From a virus (lineage: Duplodnaviria; Heunggongvirae; Uroviricota; Caudoviricetes), in the IMG/VR virus record IMGVR_UViG_2534681673_000006, positions 1 through 15,337 of that record: a stretch of DNA of 15,337 nucleotides; one strand, given 5' to 3'. A program made the position numbers and the translations under genes. The stretch's first letter is position 1. Every line of letters begins with the position of its first letter. Of this stretch, positions 1-15,337 are shown piece after piece. Under the pieces are notes generated by a model. That model did not search any database. It saw nothing but the letters and a program-made list of their open reading frames with translations, and was not told where the DNA came from.

Positions 1-165
1 ATGGCAAAGCCGATCATCACGCTCAATGGCCTAAAAATCGTCATTATGTTGGGAATGCTGGTCATTATTCTCTGCGGTATCCGTTTTGCCGCCGAGATCA
101 TCGTGCCGTTTATTCTCGCATTATTTATTGCTGTTATATATAACTTATCCCGCATAGTGCATTGA
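1..165 (+). pseudogene. tqsA: 5' fragment of tqsA/ydgG-like (AI-2 exporter family) inner-membrane protein gene, interrupted after ~codon 46
   Basis: Translation [46 protein letters not shown] matches, from memory, the TqsA/YdgG N-terminus; then diverges into YNLSRIVH plus stop at 163-165. Identity is recalled, not searched. Confidence 0.4.
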
Positions 166-620
166 TTTAATTAAGCAATTTTCACTGAGAAAGTGCCAAA
201 ATTCGCAAAATGACTACACCAGTGACTACACCGTTCGGTGCACTGTATGAAACAACGTGGAACAAATAGGCACAAGAAATATAAAGGCGGGTAATTTTAA
301 GGAGGCGTTGCTGTCGATATGGGGATCCCCATAACGGGGCTACCGGATTTTTTTTCCGGTTAACCTTTAATCAGCCAGGTGGGTTTTACATACCCTTGAT
401 CACCGTAATGATGATCCAGATGTGCACCTTTTCCACCAATGGAGGAAAAGCTCCAACCGTAACGATGATCGCTATGGTTGCCTCGATGGTCTGCGTGGTC
501 ATTATGACCATTCAGCCAGTGACCTTAATCAGAATTTTTCGCTAAAAAATGACGTTGGCCACGTCATCCGGAAAGCACAAAATCACGTCGATTTTTAATG
601 AACGGTTAAACCGTCTTTTT

Positions 621-7589: not shown

Positions 7590-7626
7590 AAAAAAAGTCC
7601 TGGGGTTAAGTAAGGAACTCCAGGAC
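7590..7626 (-). terminator. Strong rho-independent terminator whose U-tract abuts the capsid ATG
   Basis: Minus-strand RNA: GUCCUGGAGUUCC-loop-CCCCAGGAC (11-bp stem, one G.U) followed by UUUUUUU then AUG. No SD between hairpin and start. Confidence 0.6.
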
Positions 7627-7679
7627 GCGGCAAACACTCAACCGTTTTTCATAAGGAAATCAGCAATCGCACCGATCGT

Positions 7680-7727
7680 TTTCCCGCCTGGTAATGAATA
7701 TTGGCGGGCACATTAACAGGCGGGAAA
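7680..7727. promoter_or_regulatory. Perfect 11-bp inverted repeat tttcccgcctg (26-nt spacer) caggcgggaaa upstream of the head operon
   Basis: Read from sequence at 7680-7690 and 7717-7727. Lies between the two minus-strand terminators. Confidence 0.45.
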
Positions 7728-7802
7728 GTGGCCCCAGCGTCCTGGCACCACGGGCGAGAATAATCATGATTCAGTTCGGGTAAAATATGCCGATCCGCTC
7801 AG

Positions 7803-7830
7803 TGAACAACGTGGAACAACCACGAACAAA
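7803..7830. promoter_or_regulatory. Three 10-bp phased repeats (minus strand TTGTTCGTGG TTGTTCCACG TTGTTCAC); candidate late promoter / activator site
   Basis: Plus strand gtgaacaacgtggaacaaccacgaacaaa. The 15-mer aacaacgtggaacaa (7805-7819) is identical to 251-265. A weak sigma70-like TTGTTC-16-TATTTT follows on the minus strand. Confidence 0.4.
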
Positions 7831-12223: not shown

Positions 12224-12279
12224 TGTGCGCACAGATTAAAATCATATGTGCGCACAGATTAAAATCATATGTGCGCACA
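12224..12279. promoter_or_regulatory. Operator array: three copies of perfect palindrome TGTGCGCACA in 23-bp tandem repeats, in the divergent promoter region
   Basis: Palindromes at 12224-12233, 12247-12256, 12270-12279; repeat unit tgtgcgcacagattaaaatcata. A partial half-site tgtgcgcc sits at 12317-12324 near a candidate TTAACA-17-TATTGT promoter for the RHH gene. Confidence 0.55.
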
Positions 12280-12353
12280 TGTCAATACTTAACATCTCAT
12301 TTTTTTTGCTGTATTGTGTGCGCCCATAAAGTCCATTTAAGTGAGGTGCATCA

Positions 12354-12551
12354 ATGTCTAGCGGTAACACAAACAACAAATCAGCAAAGAAAAATATTCG
12401 ATTCCCACATGAGCTTATAGATGGGATTGATGCCAGCGTTGAACAAGAAAAATTAACTAATCCTAGTGCTAATTTTTCCGCATGGGTCTTAGATGCCTGT
12501 GGACGCAAATTAAAATATGAACAGCGCCGGAAGGCCAAAGAATCAGAATAA
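12354..12551 (+). CDS. Ribbon-helix-helix (CopG/Arc-like) DNA-binding protein, cassette 1
   Basis: 65 aa; GAGGTG SD 5 nt upstream. KNIRFPHELIDGIDASVEQEK...SANFSAWVLDACGRKL fits an RHH strand-helix-helix. Paralogous to the 13113-13292 protein. Confidence 0.65.
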   Translation: MSSGNTNNKSAKKNIRFPHELIDGIDASVEQEKLTNPSANFSAWVLDACGRKLKYEQRRKAKESE

Positions 12552-12600
12552 TCACTATCAGCGCCGTGGTGTGAGGTACTACGGCGCATTGCTTTACAGG
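12527..12600 (+). repeat. ~74-bp near-identical junction element (second copy 13268-13341) spanning the RHH gene 3' end and a hairpin
   Basis: aaggccaaagaatcagaataat(c/t)actatcagcgccgtgg(t/c)gtgaggtactacggcgcattgctttacagg. Stem gcgccgtgg/ctacggcgc with a GAGG-containing loop. Confidence 0.55.
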
Positions 12601-12608
12601 GCAGTAAC

Positions 12609-12836
12609 ATGACCAACAACACACTATCACCAATACAAGACACGCAAACGCAAGATGATGAAATCATCCGGCAAAGGCAGTCAGAAGCCTGCGCCAGACT
12701 TGAGGAAGAACTAACCAGAACAAAAATACCACCACCAGCGCCGCGCTTAGTTCCACCAGAAAAATTTGCCCTTGAAGATTTTGTCGATAAATACCCACGG
12801 CGGCTTAAATCCGGCAAAAACCGACCGCCAGGATGA
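12609..12836 (+). CDS. Small partner protein, cassette 1, 75 aa, unknown function
   Basis: Starts MTN; C-terminal motif FALEDFVDKYPRR is shared with the cassette-2 partner (FVLDEFLKKYSR). Proline-rich middle. No known domain. Confidence 0.5.
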   Translation: MTNNTLSPIQDTQTQDDEIIRQRQSEACARLEEELTRTKIPPPAPRLVPPEKFALEDFVDKYPRRLKSGKNRPPG

Positions 12837-12999
12837 GTGCACAAAACCGAACTATGAAACGGATTATTCCGTTTCCGGGGCGTTTGTGTGTGTATAAAGA
12901 GTAAGCTATGCTCTTTTATAGCCATAATCGTTACCTCAATTAATGGTTTGGTTAGACGCCCCGTATGTGTTCCCATCACTGCGGGGCGTTGTTGTTTTG

Positions 13000-13092
13000 G
13001 GTGTATTTCACCTTTATTTTTAAATCTACATTCAGGTGAAATACACCGCAAGACTTTTTTTATCTTTTTTTTTGCGTATACTGAAATACACC
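13000..13092. promoter_or_regulatory. Operator/promoter of cassette 2: perfect 13-bp inverted repeat ggtgtatttcacc / ggtgaaatacacc plus a third half-site overlapping a TATACT -10
   Basis: Arms at 13000-13012 and 13035-13047 (22-bp spacer); tgaaatacacc at 13082-13092 directly after TATACT (13077-13082). AGGAG SD follows. Confidence 0.55.
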
Positions 13093-13112
13093 GATTATCA
13101 GGAGAACCAGAA

Positions 13113-13292
13113 ATGGCAACAGGTGCAAAGAACGCAAAATCACAAATGACAACGGTCAGAATCCCGCATGAGGTAATGACCGATATTGAGCAACTTAAAG
13201 AACCTGGCGAAAGTACCGCCGGATTTCTAGTTACGGCAGCAAAAGGCGAGATCAAACGCCGCCAGCGCCGCAAGGCCAAAGAATCAGAATAA
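13113..13292 (+). CDS. Ribbon-helix-helix DNA-binding protein, cassette 2
   Basis: 59 aa from ATG 13113 (AGGAG SD). TTVRIPHEVMTDIEQLK...TAGFLVTAAKGEIKRRQ is paralogous to cassette 1 with divergent DNA. Shared C-terminus RRKAKESE. Confidence 0.65.
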   Translation: MATGAKNAKSQMTTVRIPHEVMTDIEQLKEPGESTAGFLVTAAKGEIKRRQRRKAKESE

Positions 13293-13349
13293 TTACTATC
13301 AGCGCCGTGGCGTGAGGTACTACGGCGCATTGCTTTACAGGTACACACA

Positions 13350-13553
13350 ATGACCAATAAAGAATCAACCAATACACCATCGCAAAAAACGAACAGAGAG
13401 CACGAAAATATGGCGCTCGAGCATGAATCAGAAAGATTCGCTCCATGCGCTTTTGTCCTTGATGAGTTTCTAAAAAAATATTCACGTTCTGAACGGATGA
13501 AAATGGCAGCACAATACGGCCCCAACAAGCAAGGTAATTGCCCACCAGCCTGA
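13350..13553 (+). CDS. Small partner protein, cassette 2, 67 aa, unknown function
   Basis: Starts MTN; same position relative to the junction hairpin as the 12609 gene; shares the F.L(E/D)(D/E)F..KY.R motif. Confidence 0.5.
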   Translation: MTNKESTNTPSQKTNREHENMALEHESERFAPCAFVLDEFLKKYSRSERMKMAAQYGPNKQGNCPPA

Positions 13554-13621
13554 TCACGGTTATCATGTTCGGGCTTATGATTGTTGACACATACGGCGCA
13601 GCGGGTTAATTGTTCAGAAAG

Positions 13622-13649
13622 GCGGTTCCATATCGGGACCGCTTTTTTT
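13622..13649 (+). terminator. Rho-independent terminator of the plus-strand RHH operon
   Basis: Stem gcggttcc/gggaccgc (8 bp, one G.U), loop atatc, followed by TTTTTTT. Confidence 0.6.
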
Positions 13650-13765
13650 ATGCCTGAAAATACCCTATAGCATGGCTTTTCAGATTCACCAGGGCGAACG
13701 AATCCCCGCCCCTGTACGGGCGTATATTTCATCATGGTTATACCTCAGTATTATGGCGTTTATTC

Positions 13766-13789
13766 CCGATACCGAGATCCCGGTATCGG
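13766..13789. promoter_or_regulatory. Perfect 9-bp inverted repeat ccgataccg-agatcc-cggtatcgg downstream of alpA
   Basis: Read from sequence. No U-tract on either strand, so more likely a protein site or an mRNA 3' stabiliser than a terminator. Confidence 0.35.
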
Positions 13790-13829
13790 TCAATAATGGA
13801 TTGGTGGTGGCTGTGTGCCGCCAGTCTTT

Positions 13830-14018
13830 TTAGTGAACTGCCTTGCAGCTATCCTTCCAGGCCAAAACCTCAGATAAAGACCAGCCAACAGAACGCCCGC
13901 CAAGTTTACGACGTGATGGGAATTGTCCGGCCTTTTCCAGGCGGTAGCGGCATGAGCGGCTAAGGCCTGTTAGCTTTTCGCATTCTTTTTCACGTATAAA
14001 CCGATCAGTGCTTAACAC
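13830..14018 (-). CDS. alpA: AlpA-family transcriptional regulator / excisionase-like HTH protein
   Basis: 62 aa; RFIREKECEKLTGLSRSCRYRLEKAGQFPSRRKLGGRSVGWSLSEVLAWK matches the AlpA/Xis-type HTH pattern. Apparent GTG start with GGGGG SD. Adjacent to integrase. Confidence 0.75.
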   Translation of the reverse strand: MLSTDRFIREKECEKLTGLSRSCRYRLEKAGQFPSRRKLGGRSVGWSLSEVLAWKDSCKAVH

Positions 14019-14179
14019 TATTGCCCCCTTTCGTTTCTTAAAGAGTTATTTCGTGTTCTATTGCGTTGGGATGTGTCTGATTGTGTCAGGATGATTCAGA
14101 GTTGGCAAATGTTGGTGTCGCATGGTTTACAGAAAGAGGAATAATCAGGATAAAATCATTTAAATTCATGTTAATACAA

Positions 14180-14209
14180 AGGCATAAAATCTTGTTTTAT
14201 GCCTTTTTT
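14180..14209. terminator. Rho-independent terminator between int and alpA, possibly bidirectional
   Basis: Stem ggcataaaa/ttttatgcc (9 bp perfect), loop tcttg. TTTTTT follows on the plus strand; the interrupted run UUUGUAUU follows on the minus strand. Confidence 0.55.
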
Positions 14210-14308
14210 CGCACGCTTTAACGCGTAATTCACTAATGTATAAAAAACCAGCTGAGCATTAAAAATCAGTAACTTACAAATCTGTATTCTTTTTGGCCTC
14301 TTGTTCGT

Positions 14309-14375
14309 GATTGTGTCACGTTGTTGCACATTGTTTCACGTTGTATCTGTGCACTTATCCAGTATGCGCATACTG
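14309..14375. promoter_or_regulatory. Four 10-bp phased repeats (consensus nnCACGTTGT) followed by perfect 16-bp palindrome CAGTATGCGCATACTG
   Basis: tcgtgattgt gtcacgttgt tgcacattgt ttcacgttgt at 14309-14352; palindrome at 14360-14375. The 10-mer gattgtgtca recurs at 14079-14088 in the alpA promoter-proximal region. Confidence 0.5.
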
Positions 14376-14392
14376 AAAAAACACGAAAAAAA

Positions 14393-15337
14393 TTATTTTA
14401 TTCTGGTTACTGGTAGCGTGGTTACGTTTTCATGTGTTCCCGCCAGTATCTCCAACCGCTCCACCCACATATCAAGCGCATTGCGTTTCGCATCAATATA
14501 GCGGGAATGGTTGTACACGCGTTGCATTCCTGGCATCTGGTGGCCTGTAAGCTGCTCCACGACGTGAGGATCAACGCCTAAATCGTTCAGCATGGTTGTA
14601 AAGGTGCGCCGGATGTCATGCAATGACCATTGAGGGTGTTTTAGCCTCCTGTGCGCTAATCTGCCGTACTGCGATACGCTAGCCTCCTGTTTCACTTCCC
14701 CCAGTAATAAGCCCGTGTGCCTGTTCTGGTCCACCAGCCGCGTGACGAACGGCAGGATCGCTTCCGGTATGGGCCGGAATATTGCAACCTTCGTTTTGCT
14801 GTGCTCCTTCGGAACGGTCCATAGCATTTCGGTAAAATCCCACTCGCTGATCTCCGATAACCTCAGTTCTACCGTCCTGGCTCCGAAGACAATCAGGAGG
14901 CGGATTAACGCGACGTAGTAAGGAGAAAATATTTTTTTATCCAGCGCCTGCAATAACTCGCCCAGTTCTTTGGTGCTTAAGACACGTTCGCTTATATCCG
15001 GTTTTTTCCCAACGTCCGCCACGTTCAGATCATCGAGAACGTTGCTGATTGCAAAGCGCCGCCTCCGGCAGAACTTAAGCGCCTGCTTGCATGTCTGTAG
15101 CACGAATCCGGCAGTAACAGGTGTTCGCTTTGCCACCTGGTCAAAACAGGCCAGCCAGTGCCGTAGCTCGCATTTATCCAGCGGCATAGCGCCAATGTAC
15201 TGTATTACGTGATTATTAAGTCGCCTTTTCAGGGCGATATAATCCACGCGGTTTTCCTTTACGTACGACTCAAGCCAGTAGGTGAGCGCATCGCCAACCG
15301 TTACCGGCTTTAACGCTTCCTGTACGGCGTAATTCAT
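14393..15337 (-). CDS. int: Tyrosine site-specific integrase (phage integrase family)
   Basis: 314 aa; core-binding-like N-terminus and catalytic C-terminus with R...HDIRRTF...GHQMPGMQRVYNHSRY (R-H-R-Y signature). ATG sits at the last three bases of the window, so any N-terminal extension cannot be assessed. Confidence 0.85.
   Translation of the reverse strand: MNYAVQEALKPVTVGDALTYWLESYVKENRVDYIALKRRLNNHVIQYIGAMPLDKCELRHWLACFDQVAKRTPVTAGFVLQTCKQALKFCRRRRFAISNVLDDLNVADVGKKPDISERVLSTKELGELLQALDKKIFSPYYVALIRLLIVFGARTVELRLSEISEWDFTEMLWTVPKEHSKTKVAIFRPIPEAILPFVTRLVDQNRHTGLLLGEVKQEASVSQYGRLAHRRLKHPQWSLHDIRRTFTTMLNDLGVDPHVVEQLTGHQMPGMQRVYNHSRYIDAKRNALDMWVERLEILAGTHENVTTLPVTRIK

Follow-up and report, generated by a model that had tools for sequence, protein, structure and literature searches.

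A conserved terminator-type hairpin and phased repeat arrays in the int-alpA region of a capsid-forming PICI

The region between int and alpA of the E. coli phage-satellite island studied here contains a perfect, conserved hairpin, which we regard with modest confidence as a bidirectional Rho-independent terminator that insulates alpA within the int-alpA control region. Its main job would probably be to end int transcripts and to shield alpA, and antisense transcription would be stopped as well. The anatomy, the conservation, the strand-specific substitutions, the spacing and the distribution of the repeats are seen directly in the sequences; from these we infer actual termination, the promoter used and the protein that binds the repeats in this region. 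As a terminator the hairpin is unremarkable, and more interest attaches to the repeat arrays that recur elsewhere in the island.

The island and the variants compared

The window, i.e. the whole stretch of 15,337 nucleotides analysed, is a capsid-forming PICI (cf-PICI) of the EcCIEDL933 family inserted in tqsA; the family is described in 10.1101/2022.09.08.507074. The island is about 15 kb in size and carries int, alpA, a replication module and capsid, protease, portal, HNH and terminase genes, without tail or lysis genes, and the split tqsA fragments on both sides of it mark a specific chromosomal site. All island genes lie on the minus strand of the window. The int gene, whose complete form measures 1230 nt in loci identical or nearly identical to this one, runs past the end of the window and stops with TAA at 14393-14395, and the Shine-Dalgarno sequence of alpA, GGGGG, is located at 14024-14028. 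The window combines a tqsA-specific integrase allele with a distinct intergenic allele (class A). The coordinates of the features are collected in Table 1.

The module was found in 878 of 5426 complete E. coli genomes (about 16%). For comparison we used 58 distinct variants obtained from 79 loci of E. coli and Shigella genomes and IMG/VR contigs; as these variants are fairly closely related (about 70-100% identity), their conservation and rigid spacing may partly reflect common descent. The Sp7 copy of O157 Sakai, which was taken to be of the EcCIEDL933 island type, aligns across the whole intergenic region with about 79% identity. A scan of genome contigs with AlpA gave three loci, of which the two non-enteric ones were left out. 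No DNA similar to the window was found in the phage collection, and looking up the Sakai locus tags in the literature yielded no useful transcript map.

Table 1 Features of the window, with positions, strand and basis of assignment
Feature	Position	Strand	Basis or remark
int, 3' two-thirds, P4-type tyrosine integrase	14393-15337	-	Pfam Phage_integrase, E 1.3e-16
alpA, 62 aa, GTG start	13830-14018	-	Pfam Phage_AlpA (PF05930), E 5e-18
Hairpin: arms 14178-14189 and 14195-14206, loop 14190-14194, T6 14204-14209 (plus strand)	14178-14209		Folding, variants
P1, candidate alpA promoter: -35 TTGCCA (14108-14103), 17-bp spacer, TG-extended -10 CACAAT (14085-14080)	14080-14108	-	Motif, conservation
P2, candidate promoter TTAACA-16-TATCCT, -35 abutting the hairpin	14147-14174	-	Motif, score at chance level
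Invariant block TTTACAGAA (TTCTGTAAA on the minus strand)	14126-14134		Unchanged in 58/58 variants
Nearly invariant A-tract block TGTATAAAAAACCAG	14237-14251		Alignments; promoter-like matches weak on either strand
Candidate IHF site AATCAGTAACTTA (consensus WATCARNNNNTTR)	14264-14276	+	Consensus match
Int-proximal array, five 10-bp units CAGATACAAC GTGAAACAAT GTGCAACAAC GTGACACAAT CACGAACAAG	14300-14349	-	Repeat search
16-bp palindrome CAGTATGCGCATACTG, just 3' of int	14360-14375		Inverted-repeat search
AlpA-proximal array, units CTGACACAAT CAGACACATC CCAACGCAAT AGAACACGAA	14050-14089	-	Direct repeats, alignment
Capsid-operon upstream array AGTGAACAAC GTGGAACAAC CACGAACAAA	7801-7830	+	Opposite orientation to the int-alpA arrays
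Left att arm: GACTACACC twice (212-220, 224-232), then AACAA repeat array (247-276)	212-276	+	Repeat search

Anatomy of the hairpin

The hairpin lies between int (stop 14393) and alpA (start 14018), about 185 nt past the int stop codon. Its two arms, AAAGGCATAAAA and TTTTATGCCTTT, are 100% complementary and form a perfect 12-bp stem, with only three G-C pairs, around a 5-nt loop. The folding energy was -15.7 kcal/mol (z -4.6) on the plus strand and -14.8 kcal/mol (z -4.0) on the minus strand, and none of 200 shuffled sequences folded as well. On the plus strand the stem runs into T6, and on the minus strand it is followed by TTTGTATT (14180 down to 14173), in which 6 of 8 residues are U and the U-tract is interrupted. 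Our custom terminator finder detected the hairpin on both strands; the built-in terminator scan missed it, presumably by extending the stem into the T-run. The element has the features of an intrinsic terminator, namely a stable stem-loop, a U-rich tract 3' of the stem, and a stem maintained among variants by compensatory and wobble changes around a variable loop.

An earlier note on this DNA, made from the sequence of the window, had placed a terminator with a 9-bp stem at 14180-14209, between an int-proximal repeat array and alpA. The results showed that a terminator-type hairpin does separate the two and that the nine pairs correspond to the GGCATAAAA core, taken together with the T-run; the full stem has 12 bp and spans 14178-14206. 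The phased repeats and the 16-bp palindrome that the note had described are also present, and the order of the elements is as it had given. The palindrome CAGTATGCGCATACTG was considered as a second terminator and rejected, as it has no U-run on either strand and its fold z values were -0.2 and -2.0; it is confined to variant classes A-C, its place being taken in classes D and E by extra repeat units.

Variation of the hairpin and the strand on which it acts

Stem pairs of the variants were counted in explicit register in Python, because MAFFT misregisters the 5' arm between the classes with 5-nt and 6-nt loops. Throughout the 58 variants the arms were conserved and the loop varied (CAAGA, CAATA, CGAGA, ACAGAA, GTAAAA). 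One A-U pair has been replaced by G-C via a G.U intermediate, which is a compensatory change. The abundant alleles ATGAAA, ATGGAA and GGCG give G.U pairs in the minus-strand RNA and A.C mismatches in the plus-strand RNA, i.e. the commonest alleles are fully paired only in the minus-strand RNA. Wobble pairs were biased toward the minus strand by 15 to 8 when counted by cell, but as independent events they were only about 7 versus 4, which is not significant. The minus-strand hairpin was more stable than the plus-strand one in 18 of the 24 hairpin variants.

The plus-strand T-run was unchanged in all 58 variants, and the minus-strand tail UUUGUAUU (6 of 8) was found in 36 of them and was weaker or absent in classes D and E; in class E the minus-strand U-tract is lost (UACUGCAU) and the plus-strand version is the better terminator. 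In distant PICIs with other int and alpA alleles, sense-strand hairpins were observed upstream of alpA at three loci, L086, L087 and L088, the one of L086 having an energy of -14.3 kcal/mol and being followed by UUUU and then directly by the alpA AUG. The custom finder detected no antisense-strand terminator hairpin upstream of alpA in these distant PICIs.

The earlier note had supposed, from the clean U-tract on the plus strand, that the hairpin may mainly stop rightward transcription into int. The U-tract is as clean as it had stated; the pairing of the common alleles, the stability of the minus-strand form and the sense-only hairpins of the distant PICIs speak against the "mainly", and so does our failure to find a convincing plus-strand promoter feeding the hairpin. 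The stricter form of this idea, which we consider unlikely, is that the hairpin works only on the plus strand, where it would end a short rightward RNA or serve as a backstop to antisense read-through coming from ynfO-like genes of the plus strand, the minus-strand pairing being incidental. Such an RNA would come from the alpA promoter region, e.g. from TTTACA-17-GATAAA, and would end at T6 after about 50 nt; the invariant block at 14126-14134, which lies at about -55 to -63 of P1, could be the -35 element of this weak promoter. The idea draws on the plus-strand U-tract, clean and invariant in variants whose minus-strand tail degenerates (classes D and E), and on TTTACAGAA and the downstream ATAAAA, which are invariant or conserved and otherwise unexplained. 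A regulatory RNA would moreover fill a gap, since Gram-negative PICIs have no known repressor (PMC6092414). On the other hand, the commonest alleles carry 1-2 A.C mismatches in the plus-strand stem, with energies of -8 to -9.3 kcal/mol, and the candidate promoter has no -7 T and scores 3.9 at the 17-bp spacer, or else needs a 19-bp spacer. For the ynfO-like unit there is already a strong terminator at about 13621-13649, along with a second hairpin at 13798-13827, Rfam at gathering thresholds gave no match within the window and hence no known RNA, and the distant PICIs are without antisense terminators at this place.

The same variants bear on whether the A/T-rich inverted repeat acts as DNA, being a protein-binding palindrome, an UP-like or bending element for P2, or curved DNA of an AlpA/IHF complex. 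In favour of such a role, the hairpin occupies about -39 to -67 relative to candidate P2, the region is rich in A-tracts, and the distances from the hairpin to its flanking elements are fixed at 57-58 and 80-81 bp. Nevertheless, we consider it very improbable: the common alleles are imperfect DNA palindromes that are still paired as RNA through G.U, which argues for function at the RNA level, as does the compensatory pair; the loop, which would be the centre of the palindrome, is free to vary in sequence and length; and a stem-loop with a T-run behind it is what classically marks a terminator.

Promoter-like sites and the possibility of attenuation

The earlier note had also pointed out a minus-strand sigma70-like site, TTGCCA-17-CACAAT, between the terminator and alpA. 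This site, P1, with TG at -15/-14, is indeed there and its pattern TTGCCA-N17-(C/A)ACAAT is present in 58 of 58 variants, even across a 10-bp indel; six apparent misses in the pattern count were regex matches to a TTGCCA that lies farther upstream, within int. The match as such is no better than chance: P1 reaches a PWM score of 10.7, the median maximum in shuffled sequences being 10.3, and three sites of the motif type were found where 4.5 were expected. PWM promoter scoring on both strands of the 58 variants gave no candidate above the maxima of shuffled sequences, and promoters were thus assigned on conservation only. P2 is kept as TTAACA-16-TATYCT in 36 of the 58 variants; classes D and E have a weaker form of it or none. 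The -10 element of P1 and the leader are overlapped by the alpA-proximal array, which is a repressor-like position and at odds with simple activation.

If the hairpin were a regulated attenuator, alpA transcripts from upstream would be stopped at it until a factor of the helper phage or of the island permits read-through. The upstream source would be Pint or a weak promoter within the conserved block, TTTAAT-17-TACAyT, with a start near 14228, and the arrangement would mirror that of the capsid leader. It agrees with this that the sole promoter-like site found at one alignment column in 58 of 58 variants is the upstream one (minimum 4.4, median 7.7), that the capsid-leader hairpin and its U7 end directly at the ATG, so that those transcripts must read through, that the L086 hairpin and UUUU immediately precede the alpA ATG, and that alpA is induced by the helper phage through some factor (PMC6092414). 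We nonetheless hold attenuation to be quite improbable. With the conserved promoter-like site P1 on the alpA side of the hairpin, alpA can do without read-through; the upstream promoter scores well below the chance maxima; no nut- or qut-like element was noticed by eye; divergent cf-PICIs are without a capsid-leader terminator; and the 62-aa winged-helix AlpA of PICIs shows no similarity to the Q-like P. aeruginosa AlpA antiterminator (PMC9371919).

A terminator that would keep alpA separate from int

The preferred reading, a bidirectional terminator, compares well with bidirectional Rho-independent insulators: a perfect A/U-flanked stem-loop, bordered by an A-run at one end and by a T-run at the opposite end, can form on both strands, and it lies downstream of int and upstream of the separately regulated alpA. 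It differs from insulator terminators in that int and alpA have the same direction, so that the reverse side is without an obvious transcript to stop, and in its A/U-rich stem with three G-C pairs and its interrupted forward U-tract. On the minus strand, int transcripts would end at the hairpin about 185 nt after the int stop codon, and therefore int read-through could not express alpA; on the plus strand, the invariant T6 would stop antisense transcription before int. Transcription of alpA would then start past the hairpin, at a weak promoter of its own that depends on an activator and is most likely TTGCCA-17-CACAAT.

What is known of related islands gives this separation its meaning. In EcCICFT073, PalpA is activated by AlpA and Pint is not, and alpA is induced by the helper phage (PMC6092414). 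For PICMI satellites, expression of alpA alone was shown to trigger excision, and the authors inferred that int is constitutive (PMC10803314). Transcription of int is reported to be AlpA-independent or constitutive in related islands. The alpA gene encodes the activator and excision factor, and once it is expressed the island is committed to excise and replicate. Since there is no known repressor and the cycle is triggered by alpA expression, how alpA is silenced beside an expressed int is a real question, and a conserved terminator between the two genes would be the simplest answer to how alpA stays off.

The window resembles the int-alpA module of EcCICFT073 and EcCIEDL933 in gene order and family; autoactivation and helper induction are known for that module, and the int and alpA genes of EcCIEDL933 are described as identical to those of EcCICFT073 (PMC6092414, 10.1101/2022.09.08.507074). 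It differs by its tqsA-specific integrase allele and its class A intergenic allele. The passages searched in these two reports gave no mapped promoter, terminator or binding site for the int-alpA module of these islands.

A 27-aa minus-strand ORF beginning at an invariant ATGAATT (14168) was judged not to be coding because it is broken after two codons in classes D and E. A mini-hairpin in the minimum-energy fold, CUCUUU/AAAGGG, that would sequester the Shine-Dalgarno sequence was likewise rejected, the leader being no stabler than shuffled sequences (z -0.4 and 0.0).

AlpA is predicted to be an excisionase-fold protein

The alpA product matches PHROG 2790, "excisionase and transcriptional regulator". 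Its AF2 model has a pLDDT of 87, and the best match in the PDB is the GIsul2 excisionase 8c3t (TM 0.79-0.86), the structural matches also including RdfS and TorI. According to the model, AlpA is a small winged-helix protein with an excisionase fold.

P2 Cox, 186 Apl and P4 Vis are recombination directionality factors with a double function, their phased direct repeats being bound both at attP and at promoters. AlpA and its surroundings resemble these systems and that of RdfS: a small protein predicted to have an excisionase fold is encoded near int, 10-bp phased repeats are found in the att arms, the same repeats occur at the putative promoters of genes that AlpA reportedly controls, and a candidate IHF site adjoins an array. 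The likeness of the RdfS filament and of GIsul2 Xis to PICI AlpA is based on structural matches. The differences are that arrays occur on both att arms and that one array, placed 3' of int, is some 220 bp away from the promoter on its upstream side.

With the processive antitermination by P. aeruginosa AlpA and phage Q (PMC7969949, PMC9371919), on the contrary, the system shares a name and a superficial layout of binding element, terminator and gene. P. aeruginosa AlpA folds into eight helices in the manner of Q21 and uses a binding element placed between -35 and -10 (PMC9371919, PMC7969949), whereas PICI AlpA has 62 aa and a predicted excisionase fold and the best conserved promoter is downstream of the hairpin. 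A PDB sequence search with PICI AlpA at E values up to 1 listed no P. aeruginosa AlpA chain; from this search and the excisionase-fold model we rejected homology between PICI AlpA and the P. aeruginosa AlpA antiterminator. Of the marks of Q-like antitermination, no Q-like fold was found, the int-proximal array lies outside any recognisable promoter, and the spacer of the sole promoter-like site conserved upstream is free of repeat units.

Repeat arrays of the island

The repeat has the consensus GTGaAACAAy in 10-bp units, and arrays of it are island-specific and confined to the int-alpA region, both att arms and the region upstream of the capsid operon. The pattern TTGT-N6-TTGT-N6-TTGT gave seven matches at four loci of the window against 0.14 expected. 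The right att arm, between the int start and the tqsA junction, was analysed in the locus L002 (18080-18207), where arrays lie at 18121-18148 and 18181-18207. The int-proximal array has five or six units, its variants differing by exactly 10 bp (U36, D/E types), and the length of the alpA-proximal array likewise changes in 10-bp steps. The two int-alpA arrays are 220-224 bp apart, i.e. about 21 helical turns; this spacing is rigid, and a lone 11-bp insertion preserves the helical phase. The candidate IHF site sits between the int-proximal array and the hairpin; 57 of 58 variants keep its consensus in place and vary freely at the NNNN positions, and the window holds five matches to the consensus against 1.1 expected.

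Since GACTACACC repeats are restricted to the att arms and the AACAA arrays are distributed more widely, the simplest assignment is that the arm domain of the integrase binds GACTACACC and AlpA binds the AACAA arrays; we infer, from this distribution and the predicted fold, that these arrays are AlpA binding sites. AlpA, bound to them head to tail, would mediate the published positive autoregulation; the arrays in both att arms would serve excision, and that before the capsid operon would serve late gene control. Our literature search found no published description of AACAA array sites for PICIs.

Tandem phased arm-type sites are typical of the attP arms of lambda-type phages, an example being lambda P'1-3. 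It is conceivable, if doubtful, that the AACAA arrays are arm-type sites of the integrase, and that the missing repressor is the integrase itself, made constitutively and covering the -10 element and leader of alpA. Their tandem phasing resembles the lambda-type sites, they occur in both att arms, and the alpA-proximal array occupies the repressor-like position noted above. However, the doubled, att-arm-restricted GACTACACC is the more natural arm-type site, an array before the capsid operon suits a regulator better than a recombinase, and it is for AlpA that regulation of PalpA and of island genes has been shown (PMC6092414).

Taking the arrays as AlpA sites again, one could speculate further, with little confidence, that the int-alpA spacer is a phase-locked AlpA/IHF switch in which one repeat code couples excision, alpA autoregulation and expression of the capsid operon, the hairpin being the gate of the off state. 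The two arrays, 21 helical turns apart, would be bent together by IHF, and the off state would be set by the hairpin blocking int read-through. In the strongest form of this idea, both the hairpin and the terminator at the capsid ATG would be conditional and would be overridden after helper induction. The arrays, the candidate IHF site and the putative TTGCCA-17-ACAAT promoter are concrete, testable sites that would together define an AlpA regulon linking excision to late genes.

The earlier note had seen in the int-alpA region a loose parallel to the control region of the head operon. The parallel is real for the repeats: the repeat unit is identical, and TTGTTCGTGGTTGTTCCACGTTGTTC on the minus strand (7829-7804) is almost the same as TTGTTCGTGATTGTGTCACGTTGTTG on the plus strand (14301-14326). 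Otherwise the parallel is loose, as the arrays have opposite orientations relative to the downstream gene, and the head terminator abuts the capsid ATG, leaving no room for a promoter, whereas here about 70 bp and a conserved promoter-like site separate the hairpin from the alpA-proximal array. The capsid-operon array is conserved in divergent cf-PICIs despite their otherwise different leader.

Genomic context of the int-alpA spacer

The window is a segment of the E. coli chromosome that begins in a 5' fragment of tqsA and ends within an integrase gene. In near-identical loci, tqsA carries the insertion of an island of about 15 kb, in which every gene lies on the minus strand in the order int, alpA, small genes, RepA-type helicase, SSB, PerC-like gene, major capsid, protease, portal, connectors, HNH and terminase. 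A capsid-forming PICI of the EcCIEDL933 type has the same gene content (10.1101/2022.09.08.507074). The int-alpA spacer was found, at 70-100% identity, in 878 of 5426 complete E. coli genomes. When window positions 13700-14500 were compared with strain 2014C-4135, the int-alpA segment was 100% identical and stood on a PICI backbone with different replication and packaging genes, which indicates that the int-alpA control module has been exchanged as a unit between satellites. Judged from these comparisons, the spacer travels as a module. The features analyzed are summarized in the table.

Table. Features of the int-alpA spacer and of the related repeat arrays (window coordinates unless stated)
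Feature	Position or distance	Strand	Remark
int-alpA spacer	374 bp, int stop codon 14393-14395 to alpA GTG start 14018-14016	minus	minus-strand genes
Hairpin	arms 14178-14189 and 14195-14206	both	5-nt loop; only three G-C pairs
P1, TTGCCA-17-CACAAT	14108..14080	minus	promoter-like match, extended -10 TG
Second candidate promoter, TTAACA-16-TATCCT	14174..14147	minus	adjoins hairpin; decays in classes D and E
IHF consensus	14264-14276		consensus match
int-proximal array	14300-14349		five 10-bp units
alpA-proximal array	14050-14089		overlaps -10 of P1 and leader
Capsid-operon array	7801-7830		just upstream of capsid operon
Left att arm array	247-276		phased triples of GTGaAACAAy
Right att arm arrays	18121-18148 and 18181-18207 of L002, a near-identical locus		between int start and tqsA junction
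Last int-array unit to IHF site	36-38 bp
IHF site to invariant TGTATAAAAAACCAG block	22-23 bp
Invariant TGTATAAAAAACCAG block to hairpin	57-58 bp
Hairpin to TTTGCCA	80-81 bp
TTTGCCA to first promoter-proximal unit	25 bp

A conserved hairpin between int and alpA

All the elements listed in the earlier note, namely the hairpin, a 16-bp palindrome (14360-14375), the phased int-proximal repeats and TTGCCA-17-CACAAT, are present. The terminator, described there with a 9-bp stem, is in fact larger and has 12 perfect pairs. Its energies are -15.7 and -14.8 kcal/mol on the plus and minus strands (z -4.6 and -4.0), far stabler than shuffled sequences on both. The GC core is followed by T6 on the plus strand and by UUUGUAUU on the minus strand.

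To follow its conservation, spacers were collected from E. coli and Shigella genomes and 68 IMG/VR contigs, giving 58 distinct sequences from 79 loci, which fall into allele classes A to E (the window belongs to class A). The hairpin is real and conserved: it was found in all 58, with conserved arms and a loop variable in sequence and length. An A-U pair of the window allele is replaced by G-C in the most divergent class, and a G.U intermediate was also seen. Since imperfect DNA palindromes stay paired at the RNA level and the loop is free to vary, an RNA hairpin is favoured over a protein-binding palindrome.

The plus-strand U-tract pointed out earlier was confirmed, the T-run being invariant across the variants. 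The suggestion that the hairpin may mainly stop rightward transcription is not supported by the substitutions, which are strand-asymmetric. The abundant alleles (5' arm ATGAAA, ATGGAA or GGCG in the alpA orientation) form G.U pairs in minus-strand RNA and A.C mismatches in plus-strand RNA; this bias amounts to 15 versus 8 cells, or about 7 versus 4 as independent events, which is suggestive and unproven. The minus-strand hairpin is the stabler in 18 of the 24 hairpin variants. Against this stand the invariant plus-strand T-run and the minus-strand tail, which is weaker in class D variants (UUUGCAUC) and which class E has lost (UACUGCAU). Three more distant PICIs (alpA about 69% identical, other integrases) have hairpins with U-rich tails upstream of alpA on the sense strand and none on the antisense strand. 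In one of these, L086 (gene order int, DUF6387 gene, alpA), a hairpin of -14.3 kcal/mol at 2436-2472 is followed by UUUU immediately before the alpA AUG, an arrangement resembling the capsid leader of the window.

The hairpin is most likely an ordinary bidirectional intrinsic terminator, and in our reading selection acts, in most alleles, on termination in the int-to-alpA direction. Its chief task is probably insulation: transcripts from int would stop at the hairpin, and alpA would thereby be shielded.

Candidate promoters and possible antitermination

As no promoter candidate outscores shuffled sequence, conservation was the sole guide. TTGCCA-N17-(C/A)ACAAT is kept in every spacer variant; in O157-type alleles, where 10 bp are deleted, the following repeat unit supplies AACAAT in place of CACAAT at an unchanged 17-bp spacing. 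P1 is taken as the most likely candidate for the alpA promoter. A weak promoter-like TTTAAT-17-TACAyT upstream of the hairpin occurs in all variants with a low score. The invariant TTTACAGAA (14126-14134) is a possible plus-strand -35 of TTTACA-17-GATAAA, which could yield an RNA of about 50 nt ending at T6; however, its -10 lacks the final T. The plus-strand ynfO-like genes to the left of alpA have their own terminator at about 13621-13649, and a convincing source of rightward transcripts toward the hairpin was not found in the window.

The interval from the ynfO-like genes to alpA holds two terminator-like hairpins on the plus strand, this one and another at about 13798-13827, the latter at the alpA stop codon; with terminators on both sides, alpA looks monocistronic. 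A perfect 9-bp inverted repeat, CCGATACCG-N6-CGGTATCGG (13766-13789), lies between alpA and the start of the next minus-strand ORF; neither strand has a U-run after it, so it may be an operator. An invariant minus-strand block, ACTCTTTAAGAAA (14034-14046), stands just 5' of the alpA Shine-Dalgarno sequence, and pairing is possible between its CUCUUU and AAAGGG in the SD region; the alpA leader as a whole is no stabler than shuffles.

The shared name suggests a comparison with the AlpA antiterminator of P. aeruginosa, which has an eight-helix Q21-like fold and a binding element between -35 and -10 (PMC7969949, PMC9371919). The PICI AlpA, in contrast, has 62 aa and an excisionase fold, and no similarity between the two was detected; membership of the P. 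aeruginosa system is therefore rejected. The terminator could be conditional on some other factor, but nothing here requires such a model.

One repeat unit in several regions of the island

The repeat unit is 10 bp, with the one-strand consensus GTGaAACAAy. Phased triples gave 7 matches against 0.14 expected. They are confined to the island, where they make up the int-proximal, alpA-proximal, capsid-operon and left att arm arrays of the table; the right att arm (L002) has the same arrays, and none was found in 23 kb of flanking chromosome. Unit number differs among variants by whole 10-bp steps. A separate repeat, GACTACACC x2, is restricted to the two att arms. In the simplest assignment, GACTACACC would be the arm-type site of the integrase and the AACAA arrays would bind AlpA, the island's only excisionase-like protein; alternatively, the arrays may be bound by the integrase arm domain. 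AlpA belongs to Pfam PF05930 and the PHROG 'excisionase and transcriptional regulator', and the structure best matched by its AF2 model (pLDDT 87) is 8c3t, the GIsul2 excisionase, followed by the excisionases RdfS and TorI and by winged helices of the MerR type. AlpA switches on its own promoter and island genes, excision and replication depend on it, and helper phage induces it (PMC6092414; PMC11773190); in PICMI satellites it acts as an excision factor (PMC10803314). These published genetics fit AlpA binding.

The IHF consensus survives in 57 of the 58 variants with free variation at its four N positions, as would be expected of a used site. Despite 20-30% sequence divergence the spacings are almost fixed, so that 220-224 bp, or about 21.0 helical turns, separate the int-proximal and alpA-proximal arrays; an insertion occurs in one variant only, and its 11 bp preserve the helical phase. 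This suggests one nucleoprotein unit enclosing the terminator, although shared ancestry could give the same picture.

The parallel drawn earlier with the head operon stands in part. The capsid and int-alpA arrays are nearly identical in sequence, and both regions have a terminator-type hairpin. The orientation of the array relative to the downstream gene, however, is opposite, and the leader and the terminator position differ. Upstream of the capsid array is the PerC-gene terminator (7870-7853), and downstream of it a structured leader of about 200 nt (7590-7800; z -4.1 versus shuffles), whose terminator hairpin (7626-7597) and U7 end directly at the capsid ATG (7589-7587). There is therefore no room for a promoter between them, and capsid transcripts must pass a terminator-like structure. 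The divergent cf-PICIs L084 and L085 lack this terminator and retain the array. The hairpin as such is of modest interest; what merits experimental follow-up is a single repeat code recurring in the control region of alpA, in each att arm and at the capsid operon, along with the conserved IHF site and fixed helical phasing.

Other features of the island

Both island ends carry, in the same orientation, GACTACACC x2 and then a phased AACAA array (window 131-276; L002 18054-18240), and the att core, approximately TGCTGTTAT, lies within tqsA. In an island beside roxA (IAI39), the int-side arm is almost identical and the core different; closely related integrases thus use two chromosomal sites. 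A second phased repeat family, GTCAC x4 at 10-11 bp spacing (TTGTCACGGTGTGTCACTGGTTGTCACTCTCCGTCAC), occurs at 616-660 within the long left end of the island, which is non-coding. Copies of a direct repeat, about 37 bp in length (TTTTGCG(C/T)TATCGGGAATAT(A/C)AAACAGTTACCGC), lie at about 690-727 and 873-909, with a third, partial copy at 943-968; IHF-consensus matches fall between the first two copies (756-768), in the second (891-903) and in the partial one (943-955). This region could be a packaging (cos-type) or origin-like site. A 497-aa minus-strand ORF (12242-13735) without Pfam or PHROG match is antisense to tandemly duplicated small plus-strand genes with PHROG matches (12888-13553; YlcI/YnfO-like and a 67-aa protein). 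In related islands, public annotation places genes now on one strand and now on the other; a 247-aa 'hypothetical protein' in O55:H7 and Sakai is one case.
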